Below are positions 1 through 50,080 of a DNA stretch of 64,000 bases, in pieces. Source of the stretch: Alphaproteobacteria bacterium (GTDB taxonomy: Bacteria > Pseudomonadota > Alphaproteobacteria > UBA6615); NCBI GenBank assembly GCA_965222215.1, contig OZ244931.1, positions 259,517 to 323,516 on the forward strand, in the 5' to 3' direction. How positions within the stretch are numbered: position 1 is the stretch's first letter; each line of letters starts with the position of its first letter. The notes under the pieces were generated by a model, which saw nothing but the letters and a program-made list of their open reading frames with translations, did no database searches and was not told where the DNA came from. The position numbers and the translations under genes were made by a program.

Positions 1-2364
1 ATGGCGATGACGGCCATCCTGCTTCTCGCATTTGCCTACTACCGCATCGCGGGCGACGGGCAGGCGCTGGCGTCGATCGGGCTGGTCTCCTTCGCCGGGG
101 TCGCGCAGTTCGCGCCCGCGATCCTGATCGGAATTTTCTGGGCCGGCGCCTCGCGGGCCGGTGCGCTGACGGGCATCGTCGCCGGCGGTGTGATCTGGGT
201 CTACACACTGCTCCTGCCGACCTTCGCCAACGCGGCGTGGTTCCCCGCGACGCTGCTCGCGCTCGGCCCCGGCGGTCTCGAATGGTTGCGCCCGCAGGCC
301 CTGTTCGGCTCGACGCTCGGCGATCCACTCACCCACGGTGTCTTCTGGAGCCTTGCCGCGAACACCCTGCTGCTCGTGTTCTTCTCGATGTTCAGCCGTC
401 AGAGCGTGCTGGACCGCAGCCAGGCCCGGGCCTTTGTGGAAGTCATGGCGGCCGACCAGTCGGCGCGCCCGCGCACGTTGCGCGGGGCGCTTGCCGCACG
501 CGACCTGGAGGCGCTCGTGGGCCGTTACCTCGGCGTGGCGTCGGCCGAGCGGGCCTTCACCCAGTACCGCGCCGACCGCTCGCCGGCGCTGCTGCAGGAC
601 GATCCCGTCGATGCCGGTGTCCTGCGCTTTGCGGAACGCCTGCTGGCCAGCGCCATCGGCGCCTCGTCGGCGCGCCTCGTGATCGCCATGTCGATGGAGC
701 GCGAAGACATCGATATGGAAAGCGCCATGTCGTTGCTCGATGACGCTACGGCGGCCATCCAGTACAACCGCGAACTGCTCCAGATGACCATGGAGAATCT
801 GCGCCAGGGGATCGCGATCCTGGATGAGGACCTCCGCCTCGCCTGGCTGAACGACCGTTTCCGCAACTATCTCGGCTTGCCCGACATGCTCGGGCGCGTC
901 GGCGTCCCGGTCGAGGACATCATCCGATACAGCGCCGAGCATGGCGAATACGGGCCGGGCGACGTGGAATCGATCGTCAACGATCTGCTGGCCCAGTACC
1001 GGCGCAACGAACCCGCGACGTATGAACGGCGGCTGGCGGACGGGACGGTGCTCGAGGTGCGCACCAGCCCGATGCCCGCGGGCGGCGTCGCGGTGTCCCT
1101 GATGGACGTGACCGACCGCGTGGAAGCCGCGACGGAACTGGAGACGGCGAAGCGCGACCTGGAGCTGCGGGTGGCGGAGCGAACACGGGACCTGACCGAC
1201 CTGAATGAGCAGCTCCGGCGCGCGTCGGATGCCGCGCAGCAGGCGAACCTCGGCAAGACGCGCTTCCTCGCGGCGGCCAGCCATGACCTGTTGCAGCCGC
1301 TGAACGCGGCGCGCCTGTTCCTGTCATCGCTGGGCGAGCGGGATATGGAGCGCGACAATGCGGAGCTGGTTGAGCGCGTCGACATCTCCCTGCGCGCGGT
1401 CGAGGATCTCCTCGCGGGCCTGCTGGATATCTCCAAGCTGGACGCGGGCGGCGTCGAGCCGCAGGTGGAGGACTTCCCGATCGACGACCTGTTGAGTGCG
1501 CTCGGGACCGAGTTTGCCGCGGTCGCCGAGGAACGCGGCATCGAGCTGCGGGTCGTGCACTCGCAAGCGATCGTGAGGTCGGACCCCCGCCTGCTGCGGC
1601 GCATACTCCAGAATTTCCTGTCGAACGCGATGCGCTATACGCCGACCGGCGGGCGCGTGATGATCGGCTGCCGGGGCGGCGGTGAGCGGTTGCGGGTCGA
1701 GGTGCGCGATTCCGGCCCCGGTATCCCCGCCGACAAGCGCGACACGGTTTTCCAGGAGTTCCAGCGCCTCCCCAACGATGCCGCGCAGGACCAGGGCCTC
1801 GGGCTGGGGCTCGCCATCGTGGAACGCATCGCGCGGATGCTCGGCCACGTGATCGATCTGCGCAGCGACGAGGGCGAGGGGTCTGTGTTCGCGGTGTCGG
1901 TGCCGCGTGGTACGGCGCGCGACGTCGTGGAAGAACCGCGCCAGCCGCCCGCATTTTCCAGCGGCGACATGGCGGGCGCGATCGTTCTGTGCATCGACGA
2001 CAATGCCGACGTGCGCGATGGCATGGAGGTGCTGCTCAGCGGCTGGGGCTGCGACGTGCGCACGGCGGCGGCGGGCGACCGATGGCGCCGCGCGATGGGG
2101 GGCGACGCGCCCGAGCTGATCATCGCCGACTATCATCTGGAGAACGACGAGCTCGGGCCGGATGTGGTGACCGAAATCTGCGGTGTCTATGAACGCGTGA
2201 TCCCGGCCGTGATCGTCACGGCGGACCCGTCCGAAAGCCTGCGCGAGGAAGCCGCACGGCGCGGCCATATCGTGCTGGACAAGCCCGTGAAGCCCGCCGC
2301 GCTCCGCGCGCTGATGACGCGCCTGCTCGCCCAGCGGGCGGCCGCCCGCCGGCAGGCATCGTGA
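1..2364 (+). CDS. Hybrid sensor histidine kinase, 5'-truncated by the window edge. The N-terminus is a sodium:solute-symporter-like membrane domain. PAS, HisKA, HATPase and a C-terminal receiver follow.
   Basis: N-terminal TM helices resemble SSF transporters (GLVSFAGVAQFAPAIL). A PAS-like segment precedes the H-box AAASHDLLQPL. G-boxes DSGPGIP and GLGLGLAIV are present. The C-terminal REC has a DYHL acceptor Asp. Confidence 0.9.
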   Translation: MAMTAILLLAFAYYRIAGDGQALASIGLVSFAGVAQFAPAILIGIFWAGASRAGALTGIVAGGVIWVYTLLLPTFANAAWFPATLLALGPGGLEWLRPQALFGSTLGDPLTHGVFWSLAANTLLLVFFSMFSRQSVLDRSQARAFVEVMAADQSARPRTLRGALAARDLEALVGRYLGVASAERAFTQYRADRSPALLQDDPVDAGVLRFAERLLASAIGASSARLVIAMSMEREDIDMESAMSLLDDATAAIQYNRELLQMTMENLRQGIAILDEDLRLAWLNDRFRNYLGLPDMLGRVGVPVEDIIRYSAEHGEYGPGDVESIVNDLLAQYRRNEPATYERRLADGTVLEVRTSPMPAGGVAVSLMDVTDRVEAATELETAKRDLELRVAERTRDLTDLNEQLRRASDAAQQANLGKTRFLAAASHDLLQPLNAARLFLSSLGERDMERDNAELVERVDISLRAVEDLLAGLLDISKLDAGGVEPQVEDFPIDDLLSALGTEFAAVAEERGIELRVVHSQAIVRSDPRLLRRILQNFLSNAMRYTPTGGRVMIGCRGGGERLRVEVRDSGPGIPADKRDTVFQEFQRLPNDAAQDQGLGLGLAIVERIARMLGHVIDLRSDEGEGSVFAVSVPRGTARDVVEEPRQPPAFSSGDMAGAIVLCIDDNADVRDGMEVLLSGWGCDVRTAAAGDRWRRAMGGDAPELIIADYHLENDELGPDVVTEICGVYERVIPAVIVTADPSESLREEAARRGHIVLDKPVKPAALRALMTRLLAQRAAARRQAS

Positions 2365-2381
2365 CGGTCACCGGGAAATAG

Positions 2382-3050
2382 TCAGGCGGGCATCTCGCGC
2401 GCGGGGTCTTCCACGTTCAGCCGCCCGGCCAGGATGACGGCCTGGGTCCGGCTGTTCACATCGAGCTTCTGCAGGATCGCGGAGACGTGGGATTTCACGG
2501 TCGCCTCGGAGATATCCAGGTCGAAGGCGATCTGCTTGTTGAGCTTGCCGTCGGACAGCATGCCCAGTACGCGCAGTTGCTGCGGCGTCAGCGCGGCGAG
2601 CCGGGCGGCCAGCGCCGCGTCTTTCGCATCGGTGTCGGGCAGCCCGTCGATCGCCTGGGGCAGCCAGGTGTTTCCGGCCAGGATTTCCGCGACCGCGGTA
2701 CGGATTTCCTCCATCGGCGCCGACTTCGGGATGAACCCGGACGCGCCATAGTCGATGGCCTGGCGCATGATGCGCGGCTCGGTGCTTGCGGAAATCATGG
2801 CGACCGGCACGGCGGGAAACTGCGAGCGCAGATAGGCCAGGCCGGTGAACCCGCGCATGCCCGGCATGTGAAGGTCGAGGAGTACGAGGTCCGGTGTGTC
2901 GCCGGTGCGGATGGCGGATTCCGCCTCGGCGAGGCTCGCCGCTTCGCGAAAGTCGGAGAGGGAAAAGTCCTGCGCGATCGCCTGACGCAACGCGTCGCGA
3001 ACCAGCGGATGGTCGTCCGCAATCACAATGATGGCGTTGGCGCTCGTCAC
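2382..3050 (-). CDS. NarL/FixJ-family response regulator (REC + LuxR HTH). The ORF-track 428-aa frame is over-extended; the likely start is GTG at 3050.
   Basis: REC motifs IIVIADDHP and LLDLHMPG are present, followed by a C-terminal LuxR HTH (LTPQQLRVLGMLSDGKLNKQIAFDLDISEATVKSHVSAILQKL). The upstream 200 aa are low-complexity R/P/G-rich. Confidence 0.8.
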   Translation of the reverse strand: MTSANAIIVIADDHPLVRDALRQAIAQDFSLSDFREAASLAEAESAIRTGDTPDLVLLDLHMPGMRGFTGLAYLRSQFPAVPVAMISASTEPRIMRQAIDYGASGFIPKSAPMEEIRTAVAEILAGNTWLPQAIDGLPDTDAKDAALAARLAALTPQQLRVLGMLSDGKLNKQIAFDLDISEATVKSHVSAILQKLDVNSRTQAVILAGRLNVEDPAREMPA

Positions 3051-3136
3051 GTTCGCTCTGCCCCCAGTCACCCGGCTGTTCCGGGTTGTTTTTCTTTTTA
3101 TTATGACGCGGCTTTGGCACCCCGTCCAACGGGGAG

Positions 3137-4567
3137 TCAGGCAGCGGGATCGAGAGCATCTTCGCGCGCCGCCGCGGCTTCGCGCGCGATCCGGCCGTAA
3201 AAGGCCTCGCGCAGGCCGGTCGCGTTTACTTCGCACATGGCGTGCAGTTCTCCGTCGATGGCCACCTGGAAGGCGCAGTGGGCGAGGCGCGCCTGCCCGG
3301 TCTCGCTCGCCAGTTCCTCCGGGCCCATGAAGTGATGGGCGGTGATCGCGAAACGGTGTACCGCGATCTGTCCCGTGACGGTCCGGCGGATCAGGGACAA
3401 GGGCGCGTCGGGCGCCAGCCGCTTCGCCCAGTCCCACGCCGCGCGTGGGAAATGCCAAAGGAGAAGCCCGGGCGCGCGCACCACCATCCCGGCCAGCCGC
3501 GCGACCGCCTCGGCGGGGCGGTCGGCCCGGAACGTCGCGCCGGGCAGGCGGTCGAAAATCGCGTCCAGCAGCCGGGCGTCGGCGGCGGAACTTTTGGGGC
3601 TCACCGGCAGGAACTGGGCCGGGCCTTCGCCGGACTGCACGCTGGCACCGATGACGAAGCGCGAACACTCGGGGTGACCCATCAGCCAGCGGTTCTCGGC
3701 CAGCCGGCCCGCATTCGTTTCCTCGATGTTGAGCCCGCGCGCGATCTCGACCCAGAGCGCCTCCGCGTCGATCCGTCCGATGCCGTTCTCGGTCCGGCCC
3801 ACGGGTGCGACCGGCAGGAAACCGACCATACGGAACACGTCCGCATTCGCCTGCATGAAGCGCACGATGTCGCCGACCTCGTGGAGATTATCGACGGTGA
3901 CGGTGACGGTCGACGCCACCCGCAACATGTGGCCGGTCTCCCGCCGGACCCGTCGCACGAGGTCCGCGAATTGCGCGCGCAACGGCATCAGGTCGGCTTC
4001 CGTGTCGGCCTGGCGGAACGCGCGGTCGTGACGGCCGCGCTGGGTGGTGTCGATGTGGAAGCTGATTTCCTCCAGCCCGCCCTCGACCATGAACCGCTTC
4101 AGCAGGTCCGGCTCGCGCAGGAAGGTATCGCCGTGGGTCATCAGCATGGGGATCAGCTCGATCGCGCGCGCGTGGCGCAGGATCGCGATCACCTCGTCCG
4201 GATCACGCAGCGAGACCTCGCCGTCCGTCAGCTGCACGTTGCCCCAGGGACCGAGATGGCGGCGCAGCATGTCGAGCTGCGCGGTCACGCCGGCGACCGG
4301 CAGCGCCGGAATACGGTTGGCGCCGTCGTTGAGGTAGCAGCCCCGGCAGGCGAAATCGCAGCGCGGCATCGCGCCGATGGTCGCGCCGCAGCCTTCCTCG
4401 TGCCGGCCGAGCATCTGGTGGGGGGTGCGGAACTCCGGCGCGATGTCGTTCCAGACAGCATCGAGCGATGCCCGCGTTTCAGGCGGCACCGGCTCGCGGA
4501 ACAGCCGCCAAAGGCGGGCGAGCCGCACCGGTTCGCGGTGTGTGGAGGTGGTCCCGAAACGTCCCAT
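3137..4567 (-). CDS. Radical SAM domain protein of 476 aa; family not recognised.
   Basis: Canonical CxxxCxxC cluster (PRCDFACRGCY) near residue 70. SD-like GAAGAAG lies upstream of the ATG. An 86-nt gap separates it from the response regulator on the same strand. Confidence 0.75.
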   Translation of the reverse strand: MGRFGTTSTHREPVRLARLWRLFREPVPPETRASLDAVWNDIAPEFRTPHQMLGRHEEGCGATIGAMPRCDFACRGCYLNDGANRIPALPVAGVTAQLDMLRRHLGPWGNVQLTDGEVSLRDPDEVIAILRHARAIELIPMLMTHGDTFLREPDLLKRFMVEGGLEEISFHIDTTQRGRHDRAFRQADTEADLMPLRAQFADLVRRVRRETGHMLRVASTVTVTVDNLHEVGDIVRFMQANADVFRMVGFLPVAPVGRTENGIGRIDAEALWVEIARGLNIEETNAGRLAENRWLMGHPECSRFVIGASVQSGEGPAQFLPVSPKSSAADARLLDAIFDRLPGATFRADRPAEAVARLAGMVVRAPGLLLWHFPRAAWDWAKRLAPDAPLSLIRRTVTGQIAVHRFAITAHHFMGPEELASETGQARLAHCAFQVAIDGELHAMCEVNATGLREAFYGRIAREAAAAREDALDPAA

Positions 4568-4696
4568 CGTGCCGTCTTCTTCCGCCGGAGTTCACGCCCT
4601 CGATCGGCGTTCCATCAGGGGGAAGGTTAGACGGTCCGGCGGGGCAGCCGGGATACAACTTGTCGTGTCGGGTGCGTGAAGAGGCGCGCAACACAC

Positions 4697-4784
4697 CGTC
4701 ATTGCGAGCCCGAAGGGCGAAGCAATCCAGAGCGGCCTTGTCCGGGCCCTGGATTGCGTCGTTGCGTTGCTCCTCGCAATGACG
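4697..4784. repeat. Family A palindromic intergenic repeat (copy A1, ~88 bp). Ends are CGTCATTGCGAG...CTCGCAATGACG with an internal GAAGCAATCCAGAGCGG / CCTGGATTGC inverted repeat.
   Basis: Near-identical copies at ~13841, 28241, 33448, 34926 and 49995, all intergenic. Terminal and internal inverted repeats give a MITE/REP-like structure. Confidence 0.8.
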
Positions 4785-4794
4785 TTGGGCGTGC

Positions 4795-5493
4795 CTACCC
4801 CAGCGTCTTGCCGTAGCGCCAGCGCTCGATGGTCACGTCCGCGAACACGCCGCCGTAGTTCAGCGGTTCCTTCGCCCAGAATTCCTCGCAGGCTTCCAGG
4901 TCCGGGTATTCCATGATCATGAAGGAGCCGATCATCTGGCTGCCGTCGTCGTTGAACATCGGCCCGCGCGCCACGTAGCGGTCCATCACGGTGGCCTGGA
5001 ATTTGTGATGCGCGTCGGCGACAGCGTCGCGCCGTTCCTTCGCTTCCGGGCCGTCGATGGCAGTGATCGCGAACTGTTTCCAGCCGTCGGTGCGCGGGAA
5101 GGTGTCCCAGCGCAGGTCCATGGAGGACGACCAGCGCGTCACCGATGTGCTCGCGAACGCGCCCGCCCTGGCATAGCCGTCGGCGGCGATCCAGGCTTCG
5201 GCGGTTTCCTTGTCGGGCGCGTCGATCAGCGCCATCGCCCCGCGCGGCGTCTCGCCGTCGGCCTTCAGCAGCGGGCCGGTGAAACGGATGATGTCCTGGG
5301 TCCCGCGCAGGTGCGCCTGGTGGCCTTCCATCCCGGCCTCGCGCAGATCCAGCCCGCCCTCTTCCTTGAAGTAGCCCTTGCAGATCCAGCTCGAGCTTTT
5401 CTTGCGGTAGTACTCGGCGAGCTCTTCCTTCGACAGCCCGTAACGCGGATCGCCGGGTAGCGCCCCGGACGGATTGTTGGGATCTTCGGCCAT
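4795..5493 (-). CDS. YciI-like (Dabb-fold) tandem-domain protein.
   Basis: Two ~100-aa YciI-like halves. It nests inside a spurious 404-aa ORF on the same strand. Confidence 0.7.
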   Translation of the reverse strand: MAEDPNNPSGALPGDPRYGLSKEELAEYYRKKSSSWICKGYFKEEGGLDLREAGMEGHQAHLRGTQDIIRFTGPLLKADGETPRGAMALIDAPDKETAEAWIAADGYARAGAFASTSVTRWSSSMDLRWDTFPRTDGWKQFAITAIDGPEAKERRDAVADAHHKFQATVMDRYVARGPMFNDDGSQMIGSFMIMEYPDLEACEEFWAKEPLNYGGVFADVTIERWRYGKTLG

Positions 5494-5625
5494 GGTCGTC
5501 TCCTCGGAACATCGTTCTTGATTGTTGCCCGCATCCTCGCGTCACCCGCGCCACGGCGCAAGTCCGCACCCGGAACGACAGTGATGCAACGGCGGCATGG
5601 CAATCACGTCTCCGCCAACCTCGGT

Positions 5626-5717
5626 CGTCACCCCTGCGAAGGCAGGGGTCCATTGACTCAGCCGGTTGCCTGGCTGGGTATCGGCGATAATGGATACCCG
5701 CCTTCGCGGGTATGACG
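5626..5717. repeat. Family B palindromic repeat (copy B1, ~92 bp). It starts GTCACCCCTGCGAAGGCAGGGGTCCATTGAC and ends CCCGCCTTCGCGGGTATGACG.
   Basis: Both arms form perfect hairpins (CCCCTGC-GAAG-GCAGGGG and CCCGC-CTTC-GCGGG). Related copies sit at ~55878 and ~60714, with a partial copy at ~57826. Confidence 0.75.
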
Positions 5718-5799
5718 ACCGGGGGTGTGGAAGGCTCCCCCTGTGTCCCTTTCGCCCTTTCGCGGTAAGCTTCCCCCGGAACCAACGGGGAAACACACC

Positions 5800-6321
5800 A
5801 TGCCACGCAACTACCGCCGCATCGTCACCGGCCACGACTCCGACGGCCGCTCGATCCTCTGGCAGGACGGGCCGTCGCCGAACGTGGTCGAGGTTATGCC
5901 CGGCCTCAGTTCGCACGAGCTCTGGCAGACGAGCGCGCCCGCCGACAACACGGGCGACGAGGACACCGCGCTGGGCGAACTTCAGCTCGAGCCGCGCAAC
6001 CCGTCGGGCACGGTCTTCCGCATCGTCGAGTTTCCGCCGGACGAAAGCCTGAAGGACGCCGACATGGGCGAAGCCTTCGAAAAGATGCACTCCGACGCCC
6101 ACGACGCCGATTCCGACACGGCGGGCATGCACGAGACCCGCACCACCGACTACGCCATTGTCATATCCGGCGAGATCTGGGCCGTGATGGAAGAGGGCGA
6201 GACGAAGATGGAAGTCGGCGACGTGCTGATCCAGCGCGGCACCAACCACGCCTGGTCGAACCGCTCCGACAAGCCCGCCGCCGTCGCGTTCGTCCTGATC
6301 GACGCGAAGGAACGGACGTAA
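5800..6321 (+). CDS. Cupin domain protein.
   Basis: ATG at 5800 with GGGGA 9 nt upstream. The ORF-track start at 5725 lies inside repeat B1. Cupin-like beta-barrel motifs follow (GEIWAVMEEGETKMEVGDVLIQRG). Confidence 0.7.
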   Translation: MPRNYRRIVTGHDSDGRSILWQDGPSPNVVEVMPGLSSHELWQTSAPADNTGDEDTALGELQLEPRNPSGTVFRIVEFPPDESLKDADMGEAFEKMHSDAHDADSDTAGMHETRTTDYAIVISGEIWAVMEEGETKMEVGDVLIQRGTNHAWSNRSDKPAAVAFVLIDAKERT

Positions 6322-6335
6322 CAAACCCCGTCATG

Positions 6336-6440
6336 TCCGGACTTGATCGGGGCATCTCGCCGCCCGACTGAGCCCTCATCCTGAGCTTGACGAAGTACGA
6401 GGGCGGCAACCTCATACTTCGACAGGCTCAGCATGAGGAT
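6336..6440. repeat. Family D hairpin element (copy D1). Its ATGTCCGGA-CTTGA-TCGGGGCAT hairpin is an imperfect version of the hairpin at ~15208.
   Basis: Shares the CGGACTTGATC(C/G)G(C/G)GCATCTCG core with the 15208-15290 element. Confidence 0.35.
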
Positions 6441-6475
6441 GCTTTGATGTCCCGGCCAATGTAAGGAGCAGCCAG

Positions 6476-6988
6476 ATGTCCAACGTTGCACTGATCGCCG
6501 TGATATTGCGGCTCGTCGCGATCTGGCTATTCGTTTCGATTCTCGACACCATTTCCTGGAGCCATGTCAGTGTGGTTTCTCAGCCAAATGTAGCGGCTTG
6601 GGTTCTCCTGAAATTTCTGCTGGCGGCGTGGTTCTTCTTCTGGCCGCTGTCGGTTGTGCGAAGGCTGGTGCCGAAAGAGGCGCGTAGAACTGATCCGGTC
6701 GACGCTCTCGAGGTATGGACACCTGACATTTTGCAGGCGGTTTTGTTTTCAGCGGCTGGCGTTTGGATTCTTGTGACGACGATCACGTCCCAAGGACTCG
6801 TCGGTGCGATTCTGTATTTTGCGACCGGCGATTCAGGCGGCTTATACGTGACAGGCGCTTCGTTTTTGGTCGCTTTGATTGAGCTGGCGTTCGGGGTCTG
6901 GCTACTCTTCGGGGCGCGGGGCCTGTTCCATCTGGTCAGCGCCGCCCGCCGCGCCCGGCTCGACAACAAACTCTTCGAGGACGAATAA
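6476..6988 (+). CDS. Hypothetical 4-TM membrane protein (noticeably lower GC).
   Basis: Strong SD AAGGAG 8 nt before the ATG. Four hydrophobic helices. Local GC is clearly below the window average. Confidence 0.6.
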   Translation: MSNVALIAVILRLVAIWLFVSILDTISWSHVSVVSQPNVAAWVLLKFLLAAWFFFWPLSVVRRLVPKEARRTDPVDALEVWTPDILQAVLFSAAGVWILVTTITSQGLVGAILYFATGDSGGLYVTGASFLVALIELAFGVWLLFGARGLFHLVSAARRARLDNKLFEDE

Positions 6989-6990
6989 AA

Positions 6991-7386
6991 ATGACCGCCA
7001 AGCTCCGCCACATCGCGCTCTCCGTGCCCGACCCCCAGAAGGCCGCGGCGTTCTACGAAAAGGCCCTCGGCATGATCCGTGTCGGCGAGAACGACCACGC
7101 CGGCGCGACGGCGGTCTATCTCACCGACGGCGTCATGAATGTCGCGCTGCTGCGCTACAAGACCGAGGAGGCCGCCGCCGGAGATCCGGACGCATTCGGC
7201 GTCCACCATTTCGGCTTCGTCGTGGACGACGTGGATGCGGCCGGCGCGGAGATCGAGGCCGCGGGCGGCAACTGGCTGATGGGCGAGGCGAAGGACTCCG
7301 GCGCCTTCTACGAGATCAAGTACCGCGACCCCGACGGCCAGGTTTTCGACATCAACGAGGGCGGATGGCGAACGGGGGACGATTGA
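6991..7386 (+). CDS. VOC / glyoxalase-bleomycin resistance family protein.
   Basis: Sequence of the glyoxalase-like fold (HIALSVPD...FYEIKYRDPDGQVFDI). Confidence 0.8.
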   Translation: MTAKLRHIALSVPDPQKAAAFYEKALGMIRVGENDHAGATAVYLTDGVMNVALLRYKTEEAAAGDPDAFGVHHFGFVVDDVDAAGAEIEAAGGNWLMGEAKDSGAFYEIKYRDPDGQVFDINEGGWRTGDD

Positions 7387-13840: not shown

Positions 13841-13927
13841 CGTCATTGCGAGGAGCGGAGCGACGAAGCAATCCAGTCTCACCGTCTTGTCCGCTCTGGA
13901 TTGCTTCACCTTCGGTTCGCAATGACG
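13841..13927. repeat. Family A repeat (copy A2).
   Basis: CGTCATTGCGAGGAGCGGAGCGACGAAGCAATCCAG...CTGGATTGCTTCACCTTCGGTTCGCAATGACG. Confidence 0.8.
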
Positions 13928-28240: not shown

Positions 28241-28326
28241 CGTCATTGCGAGCCGTAGGCGAAGCAATCCAGAGCGGACCTGCCTCGGCCCTGGATTGCT
28301 TCGTCGCTACGCTCCTCGCAATGACA
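28241..28326. repeat. Family A repeat (copy A3).
   Basis: CGTCATTGCGAGCCGTAGGCGAAGCAATCCAGAGCGG...CTGGATTGCTTCGTCGCTACGCTCCTCGCAATGAC. Confidence 0.8.
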
Positions 28327-33447: not shown

Positions 33448-33528
33448 CGTCATTGCGAGGAGCAGCGCGACGACGCAATCCAGAGCCGACAGGCCCGCTC
33501 TGGATTGCTTCGCTTCGCTCGCAATGAC
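33448..33528. repeat. Family A repeat (copy A4).
   Basis: CGTCATTGCGAGGAGCAGCGCGACGACGCAATCCAGAGCCG...CTCTGGATTGCTTCGCTTCGCTCGCAATGAC. Confidence 0.8.
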
Positions 33529-34925: not shown

Positions 34926-35012
34926 CGTCATTGCGAGGCCATCGGCCGAAGCAATCCAGATCGGGCATGTCCGCGCCACTGGATTGCGTCGTCGCTACGC
35001 TCCTCGCAGTGA
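34926..35012. repeat. Family A repeat (copy A5).
   Basis: CGTCATTGCGAGGCCATCGGCCGAAGCAATCCAGATCGG...CTGGATTGCGTCGTCGCTACGCTCCTCGCAGTGAC. Confidence 0.8.
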
Positions 35013-35049
35013 CAGGTTTGCAGCTATTCTGAGAAGTGAGGTTGGAGCG

Positions 35050-49994: not shown

Positions 49995-50080
49995 GTCATT
50001 GCGATCCCGTAGGGCGAAGCAATCCAGAGCGGGTTTCACTCGGCCCTGGATTGCGTCGTCGCTACGCTCCTCGCAACGAC
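49995..50080. repeat. Family A repeat (copy A6).
   Basis: GTCATTGCGATCCCGTAGGGCGAAGCAATCCAGAGCGG...CTGGATTGCGTCGTCGCTACGCTCCTCGCAACGACG. Confidence 0.8.

Follow-up and report, generated by a model that had tools for sequence, protein, structure and literature searches.

A radical SAM enzyme with a predicted Tes-like fold beside a CrbS/CrbR-like two-component system in an alphaproteobacterium

The genes described here find their closest described counterparts in two places, one regulatory and one enzymatic. CrbS/CrbR (MxtR/ErdR) is the two-component system of the acetate switch. Its homologue in Sinorhizobium fredii has a hybrid kinase of the SLC5/STAC type, with the gene of its LuxR-type response regulator adjacent and convergent (PMC9100948), and the motif of Pseudomonas fluorescens CrbR is the ACTU (PMC5715377). 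Transporter-fused kinases are likewise part of the pyruvate-responsive SLC5/STAC system RpuS/RpuR of Sinorhizobium and of CbrA/CbrB (PMC9100948). On the enzymatic side stands Tes (GDGT-MAS), the tetraether lipid synthase of M. jannaschii (MJ0619; structures 7TOL and 7TOM), an archaeal enzyme of the radical S-adenosylmethionine (SAM) type, which welds lipid tails together and is built from a radical SAM core and then a C-terminal domain. Its N-terminal features comprise a rubredoxin-like site (C9X2C12X20C33X2H36) and a [4Fe-4S] cluster held by C73, C77, C80 and a His, and its C-terminal [Fe4S4] cluster has three Cys and Met439, which is the labile ligand, with Tyr459 conserved as well (PMC9433317). 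Bacterial Tes homologues have been defined by BLASTP E < 1e-50 and more than 20-30% identity (PMC8941075). In the window analysed here, a 64-kb stretch of alphaproteobacterial DNA (contig OZ244931.1, positions 259,517 to 323,516, renumbered from 1), a radical SAM gene lies next to the genes of a two-component system, and a preceding sequence-only reading had suggested that together they form a regulated modification or catabolic step. The reading preferred here, to which an even chance is given, is that two separate units stand side by side, namely a CrbS/CrbR-type pair and a radical SAM gene that is the remnant of a radical SAM-DUF547 cassette and encodes a Tes-like enzyme.

The radical SAM gene indeed occupies positions 3137-4567 on the minus strand and encodes 476 aa with the motif CDFACRGC (C70-x3-C74-x2-C77). 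It is followed on the same strand, after a gap of 86 nt (3051-3136) that includes CATAATAAAAAGAAAAACAAC, by a gene for a NarL/LuxR-type, CrbR/ErdR-like response regulator (2385-3050, minus strand, 222 aa, GTG start), in which Pfam finds Response_reg (83 bits) and GerE (70 bits). Converging on the latter, with the stop codons 20 nt apart, is the gene of an SLC5/STAC-type, CrbS/MxtR-like hybrid kinase (1-2364, plus strand), which is cut by the window start to the C-terminal 787 of 1182 aa; the fragment holds the last transmembrane helices and, as found by Pfam, PAS_7, HisKA, HATPase_c and its own receiver. The G+C content of the region is ~68-70%, and the called genes look real, since they have a G+C of 0.87-0.88 at third codon positions (GC3) against ~0.5 at second positions (GC2).

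The two-component system is of an ordinary, known kind, a CrbS/CrbR-like pair, as concluded from the domain matches, the match of the membrane domain to PDB entry 10ed and the convergent layout resembling that of S. fredii. The C-terminal region of the kinase scores 444 bits against the NCBIfam model NF041832 (NahK/ErcS; cutoff 400), and an identical full-length kinase of 1182 aa is encoded on a public contig (P0121; L001:2466-6014). Its membrane domain of 655 aa matches the membrane domain of a 'histidine kinase', 10ed_A, over ~600 residues with an E value of 6e-72, and its homologues, many close ones among them, carry a precomputed PF00474 or the JGI name 'Na+/proline symporter/histidine kinase/CheY', which bears out the transporter-like module proposed earlier; the Pfam SSF model itself gave no match to the 655-aa domain, even at E <= 10. 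The architecture is that of an SLC5/STAC hybrid kinase, with an SLC5-like membrane domain, PAS-HisKA-HATPase and a C-terminal receiver. For the regulator, whose identity across 13 related loci is 68-88%, the best NCBIfam match is ErdR (NF041830, equal to CrbR) with 230 bits, below the curated cutoff of 390.

With CrbS/CrbR the window pair thus has in common the hybrid SLC5-like kinase with PAS, HisKA/HATPase and receiver, the LuxR-type partner and the adjacent, convergent genes as in S. fredii NGR234, and ACTU-like repeats occur in relatives. It differs in the score of the regulator below the ErdR cutoff, in the silence of the SSF model on the kinase and in the lack, within the window, of any acs/actP target or ACTU-like site. 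From RpuS/RpuR, which is an operon beside mctP, it is set apart by convergent genes with no mctP adjacent. The designation 'CbrA-type' used in the sequence-only reading holds for the transporter fusion, but not for the remainder, since a receiver together with a LuxR-type partner is CrbS-type; CbrA lacks a receiver, and its partner CbrB is an NtrC-type sigma-54 activator. In the mechanism proposed for the window pair, the SLC5-like transporter domain would sense a small carboxylate-type solute, and a phosphorelay would run from the kinase through its own receiver to the LuxR-type regulator, whose gene would have a promoter to itself at 3129-3100.

This sigma-70-like promoter (3100-3129, minus strand) consists of a -35 element TTGGAC at 3129-3124 and a -10 element CATAAT at 3105-3100 and is the sole sigma-70-like match in positions 2300-5800, where 0.2 would be expected. 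A block of the form cgTTGGAC-N17/18-CATAAT aligns 5' of the regulator gene in 14 of 14 alphaproteobacterial loci, with either the radical SAM gene or a DUF547 gene preceding it and with CCTAAG or CATATG as the -10 variant in some, and a CATAAT-type -10 is also found 5' of the regulator in two loci without the radical SAM gene (L087 and L088). An operon of the radical SAM and regulator genes had been proposed; because the gap carries this conserved promoter, co-transcription is not needed. The AT-rich leader that had been singled out between the two genes is present in the sequence, but it corresponds to the -10 box and the predicted start of the regulator's own transcript. Within the regulator's 5' leader a stem-loop ACCCGG-AACAG-CCGGGT (3070-3086, minus strand) precedes GGGGG at 3065-3061 and, at 3050, the GTG start. 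Of the 15 related leaders compared (the window, L002-L014 and L082), 12 have a predicted CCGG-loop-CCGG hairpin before the Shine-Dalgarno sequence, with differing flanking pairs. On the plus strand of the window the stem-loop scores as terminator-like.

The radical SAM gene and the two-component system appear to be neighbours by descent and not a dedicated sensor-enzyme pair. In 5 of 5 loci in which the kinase is 51-58% identical (L083 and L084 of Virgifigura deserti, L086, L087 and L088), the kinase and regulator genes are convergent and the radical SAM gene is lacking; in another locus without it (L085) a gene for a YCII protein lies directly 5' of the regulator gene, and the kinase is again convergent. 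Conversely, none of the 67 radical SAM loci outside the Alphaproteobacteria has an SLC5 kinase nearby. Taken together with the regulator's own promoter and with the partner that accompanies the enzyme across phyla, DUF547, these distributions leave the claim of a dedicated two-component output unsupported; the linkage is confined to a single alphaproteobacterial lineage. An independent linkage of the radical SAM gene to an SLC5 kinase was considered for L035, L042, L043 and L067 and rejected, the proteins there being only generic kinase cores and NarL regulators with 25-31% identity.

In three of the organisms without the radical SAM gene the regulator gene is divergent from a Peripla_BP_6 ABC transporter, and inverted repeats resembling the ACTU, TTcGAC-N4-GTCTAA (GAC-N4-GTC), occur beside the regulator gene in L083 (10414-10431), L087 (9315-9332) and L088 (9336-9352 and 9391-9408). 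These repeats sit between the regulator gene and the divergent Peripla_BP_6 ABC-transporter operon. Their presence there suggests that the ABC transporter is a target of the CrbR-like regulator in these relatives. A position weight matrix (PWM) for the ACTU was built from the P. fluorescens sites and those of the alphaproteobacterial relatives; it found nothing above background near the radical SAM, YCII, cupin and regulator promoters of the window and 13 related loci, a negative of little power, since the motif of this lineage may differ. The sole window match of at least 12 bits lies inside a coding region, and the positive-control relatives reach 14.5-16.2 bits. From these observations we infer the absence of regulatory coupling; the neighbouring system may have captured the enzyme gene, but the observations lend this no support.

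The enzyme itself belongs to a small, coherent and highly conserved family, with a mean column identity of 59% over 73 sequences. Its only Pfam match is Radical_SAM (PF04055; 30.2 bits, cutoff 29.5), and the CX3CX2C motif (C70-DFA-C74-RG-C77) is invariant in all 73, which places it in the radical SAM superfamily. Equally invariant in the 73 members are C60, C301, C431 and C445 together with H298 and H411, and the four extra Cys and H411 are kept, as judged by eye, in divergent fused members too. The absence of a further Cys-rich auxiliary-cluster domain, as asserted from the sequence before, is therefore not upheld: four more Cys are invariant, and two of them, C431 and C445, align with Cys of the C-terminal [Fe4S4] domain of Tes. 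That the family is uncharacterised proved right, since no characterised match was obtained and the best NCBIfam scores, 56 bits for Tes (cutoff 450) and 50 bits for TrsS (cutoff 490), lie far below the cutoffs. An assignment to the TrsS radical SAM (seleno)proteins was rejected (NF045646, 50.3 bits against the equivalog cutoff of 490), and so was one to the SPASM/twitch enzymes (PF04055 as the sole Pfam match; TIGR04311 with 15 bits against 400). Scans with Pfam, NCBIfam and PADLOC gave neither a characterised radical SAM family nor a defence system. In the source databases members are named merely 'radical SAM protein' or 'hypothetical protein'. The family comprises 189 clusters at 50% identity (E <= 1e-30) among 1.84 billion representative proteins, and, of 185,579 species genomes, 142 contain a relative. 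All of the best 80 genomic loci (L002-L081) come from metagenome-assembled genomes, with no cultured isolate among them, and their hosts are mostly Gemmatimonadota, with some Planctomycetota, Acidobacteriota, Bdellovibrionales, Verrucomicrobia and Methylococcaceae and one alphaproteobacterial clade.

The link to Tes comes mainly from the predicted structure. An AF2 model built on the family alignment (pLDDT 93, pTM 0.92) was compared with the PDB by Foldseek, and 7tol/7tom matched with an E value of 9e-17 over 437-455 columns and a TM score of 0.52-0.57 (for 7tol alone E 8.6e-17, 437 columns, TM 0.57), covering the two-domain fold of Tes, while other radical SAM enzymes in the PDB aligned over the core only (TM <= 0.35). 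Judged by this model, Tes/GDGT-MAS is the sole full-length structural relative of the enzyme in the PDB. Sequence comparison agrees in direction, with a phmmer E value of 1e-7 against 7tol, and the family profile aligns VSHHFMS...HC.F...SMCEVN with ISCMHFMD...RCCIHY...PFCTYN of Tes, so that the HFM and CxxN motifs correspond. In this alignment C431 falls on Tes Cys455, C445 on Cys470 and H411 on Met439, and Tyr459 lies in an insertion (the chain numbering of 7tol is that of the paper plus 20, M459 being Met439 and Y479 being Tyr459). The C-terminal cluster is probably Tes-like with a Cys3-His ligand set, a prediction that the fold match supports, and its site is probably homologous to that of Tes but differently ligated.

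The differences from Tes are considerable. Identity in the Foldseek alignment is 18%, the Tes model NF045702 gives 56.5 bits against its cutoff of 450, and the family falls outside the published set of bacterial homologues, for which E < 1e-50 was required (PMC8941075). The rubredoxin-like site and the N-terminal [4Fe-4S] ligands of Tes are lacking, as there is no Cys among residues 1-59 of the window enzyme and C60 is the sole one before the radical SAM motif. Neither is the C-terminal set of three Cys with labile Met439 and Tyr459 retained, the family having His411 at Met439, Ser or Ala at Cys438 and nothing at Tyr459. The hosts, moreover, are bacteria with ester lipids, and the partner genes are DUF547, the VTT-reductase pair and GT2 instead of archaeal lipid genes. 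The enzyme is consequently a stripped-down, differently ligated relative of Tes, which of the marks of Tes retains the overall fold only. Most likely it would act in a Tes-like manner, cleaving SAM at the C70/C74/C77 cluster and abstracting hydrogen from a hydrophobic, lipid-linked substrate such as a lipid tail or a polyprenyl-phosphate-linked group.

The partners of the family were determined by clustering all open reading frames from the window and 81 fetched loci (82 loci). Across phyla, a DUF547 protein (~270 aa, PF04784) directly adjoins the radical SAM gene in 62 of the 82, often with overlapping stop and start codons, and the association is confirmed by Rosetta-stone fusions of the two (P0270 and P0324). 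Outside the Alphaproteobacteria the DUF547 proteins mostly have Sec signal peptides, in one case a lipobox, and the alphaproteobacterial versions are without them. DUF547 carries a conserved C-x4-C-P motif and has no sequence relative in the PDB, and among the literature matches listed no paper joined it with radical SAM or treated a bacterial DUF547 gene cluster. In 28 loci a VTT/DedA membrane protein and a MerA-like FAD disulfide reductase (NF004991, 708 bits) are encoded beside the DUF547-radical SAM pair; fusions of these two of 700-775 aa occur, and in the non-alphaproteobacterial loci (L015-L081) they are often divergent from DUF547-radical SAM.

One true family member (P0247, 589 bits) is a GT2::radical SAM fusion, whose GT2 part bears the closest resemblance to AglJ and PpgS, which are dolichyl/polyprenyl-phosphate glycosyltransferases. 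On its contig (L089:545-8741) the order is AGPS, a fatty-acyl-CoA reductase (FAR)-like gene, two unknown genes, one of them for a polytopic membrane protein, the GT2::radical SAM gene and a DUF547 lipoprotein gene, the fusion gene lying 2.3 kb downstream of AGPS and the reductase-like gene, which are ether-lipid genes. This AGPS matches mammalian alkyl-DHAP synthase (4bby) with E 4.5e-165 and the reductase-like protein 7eoz with E 5e-19. Such AGPS/FAR genes stand beside this one member and were not found in the other 80 loci. A remoter subfamily (P0352 and P0374) is fused to TIGR04283, 'arsenosugar biosynthesis glycosyltransferase' (230 bits, cutoff 182), and a remote relative (P0243) has an N-terminal extension of the thioredoxin-like VPGUxxT family; these fusions hint at metalloid or redox chemistry in the wider clade. 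For the family proper, a substrate that is a lipid or is linked to one is suggested by the resemblance of the fold to Tes, by the GT2 of polyprenyl type, by the membrane protein of the DedA family and by a partner that is exported.

In the Alphaproteobacteria the loci share one layout, a cupin gene divergent from a YCII gene, which is followed on one strand by the radical SAM gene, DUF547 where present and the regulator gene, with the kinase gene convergent. The three genes of the sequence-only reading are kept together in 16 of 16 related alphaproteobacterial loci, and to this extent the synteny it relied upon is real. DUF547 is present in L004, L005, L007-L014 and L082 and absent from the window, L001, L002, L003 and L006, and where it is absent the regulator gene begins ~90 nt past the radical SAM gene. 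No DUF547, VTT or reductase gene was found anywhere in the 64-kb window, which consequently does not hold the radical SAM-DUF547 module. A neighbour-joining tree places the alphaproteobacterial radical SAM proteins in one clade with two independent losses of DUF547, and the sequence past the radical SAM stop codon of L006 aligns with that past the DUF547 stop codon of its sister L004, which points to a clean deletion of DUF547. In the simplest reading of the order of events, a radical SAM-DUF547 cassette would have been acquired between the YCII gene and the regulator promoter by an ancestor of the lineage and then kept by descent, and DUF547 would later have been deleted in the sub-lineage of the window and, independently, in L006.

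Several points weigh against the picture of two units with a Tes-like enzyme in one of them. The lipid argument is built from the likeness of the folds, from fusions and gene neighbours seen in other lineages and from one instance of an ether-lipid context, and those partners are absent from the window; the C-terminal profile segment is weak by itself against Tes (5.9 bits); the linkage of radical SAM, regulator and kinase genes in all 16 alphaproteobacterial loci extends down to ~60% radical SAM identity and could reflect selection for co-regulation; and an intrinsic terminator between the radical SAM and regulator genes was not found on the minus strand, so that read-through is possible. The last two points, along with the shared strand, the spacing of 86 nt and a conserved 15-nt box 5' of the radical SAM gene that could be an operator, are what would be expected if the enzyme were the dedicated, co-transcribed output of the system, with the kinase sensing a solute and the regulator turning on a modification or catabolic step catalysed by the radical SAM protein. 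We hold this to be unlikely, given that the regulator has its own conserved promoter, that the same pair does without the radical SAM gene in all five more distant relatives, that the family elsewhere does without such a two-component system, and that the ACTU-like motif is missing near the radical SAM, YCII and cupin promoters of the window and the 13 related loci.

As to the chemistry, the enzyme might instead act on metalloids or in thiol redox reactions, with organo-arsenic or organo-selenium compounds in the place of lipids, which would fit the selenoprotein family TrsS as second-best NCBIfam match, the TIGR04283 and VPGUxxT fusions of the remote relatives, the recurrent MerA-like reductase and the C-x4-C-P motif of DUF547. 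Neither the window nor the 80 loci examined contain ars, sel or mer genes, however, the only full-length fold match is a lipid enzyme, and it is a true member that is fused to a polyprenyl-phosphate-type GT2 near AGPS/FAR, which together make a metalloid or redox role distinctly improbable. It could also be argued that the window gene is a functionless relic, decaying since the loss of an obligate partner, as DUF547 is a near-universal and sometimes fused neighbour, is missing here and was lost twice in the lineage. Decay fits poorly with a full-length reading frame in which all ~75 family-invariant residues are intact, with a GC3 of 0.87, the same as in the neighbouring genes, with the conserved upstream box and with an identity of 72-88% in relatives that likewise have no DUF547, and DUF547 could also lie elsewhere in the genome; we therefore regard this explanation as highly improbable.

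The interest lies mostly in the radical SAM family and little in the window locus, the two-component system being ordinary. Almost all that is known of the family comes from uncultured bacteria, and the one full-length structural relative it has is an archaeal lipid enzyme. A wider proposal, which is considered doubtful, is that the radical SAM-DUF547 module, often with the VTT/DedA-flavin reductase pair and sometimes with a GT2 fusion, constitutes an unrecognised bacterial pathway, in which a stripped-down Tes-like enzyme would act through radical C-C or C-S chemistry, with a membrane lipid or a polyprenyl-linked intermediate as its substrate, in phyla that are mostly aerobic (Gemmatimonadota, Planctomycetota, Acidobacteriota and some Alphaproteobacteria); in the lineage of the window it would do so in the absence of DUF547, and the neighbouring SLC5-type sensor might have gained control of it. 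Should the family act on lipids or lipid-linked sugars, this would be a new radical lipid-modifying reaction in bacteria, would assign DUF547, and perhaps also the widespread VTT/DedA-flavin reductase pair, a function, and could bear on how membrane-spanning or branched ether lipids arose in bacteria, one member being beside ether-lipid genes. For annotation, the lesson is that synteny with a regulator restricted to one lineage is weak evidence for regulation; in the present case the genes are distributed more widely independently of each other, and the regulator gene has a conserved promoter and the radical SAM gene a probable one.

The 15-nt box mentioned above, ACACGAnAAGTTGAG, has the form ACACGACAAGTTGTA in the window (4654-4668, minus strand), ~90 nt 5' of the radical SAM start, with a variable GC hairpin after it, and is recognisable in 15 of 15 alphaproteobacterial loci, L002 being short of four of its bases. 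It probably serves as a promoter or operator, or marks where the radical SAM leader begins; a sigma-70 promoter was rejected for it, as the hexamer spacing of 21-22 nt is unfit. Rfam searches over 2300-6500 found no riboswitch or known RNA above threshold, and on the radical SAM leader RNAalifold gave no consensus structure, the single-sequence z-scores being mixed (-4.6 to -0.07). A box-like sequence, CGAATAAGTT, also stands after the YCII gene of L085, a locus that has no radical SAM gene. Much of the long spacer between the YCII and radical SAM genes is made up by one copy of a REP/MITE-like palindromic repeat of 86 nt (4698-4783), inserted between them and with the ends GTCATTGCGAG...CTCGCAATGAC. 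The terminal word of the repeat is matched 13 times in the window, where 1.8 matches would be expected, and at least six paired copies are present in the 64 kb, all intergenic and ~80-86 nt long (4698-4783, 13842-13926, 28242-28325, 33449-33528, 34927-35013 and 49995-50080).

Upstream of the radical SAM gene on the same strand lies the YCII gene (4795-5493, minus strand), which encodes 232 aa with two Pfam YCII domains; the closest PDB match of this protein is the dehydrochlorinase TftG (E 7.5e-6), and its position 5' of the radical SAM gene is conserved in the alphaproteobacterial lineage only. Divergent from it is a Cupin_2 gene identified by Pfam (5725-6321, plus strand, 198 aa), part of the same lineage-specific synteny block. 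A palindromic stretch at 6369-6443 has weak, sub-threshold Rfam matches on both strands, and at 6251-7000, spanning an open reading frame for a hydrophobic protein of 170 aa (6476-6988, plus strand), the G+C content falls to 0.57, compared with ~0.68.

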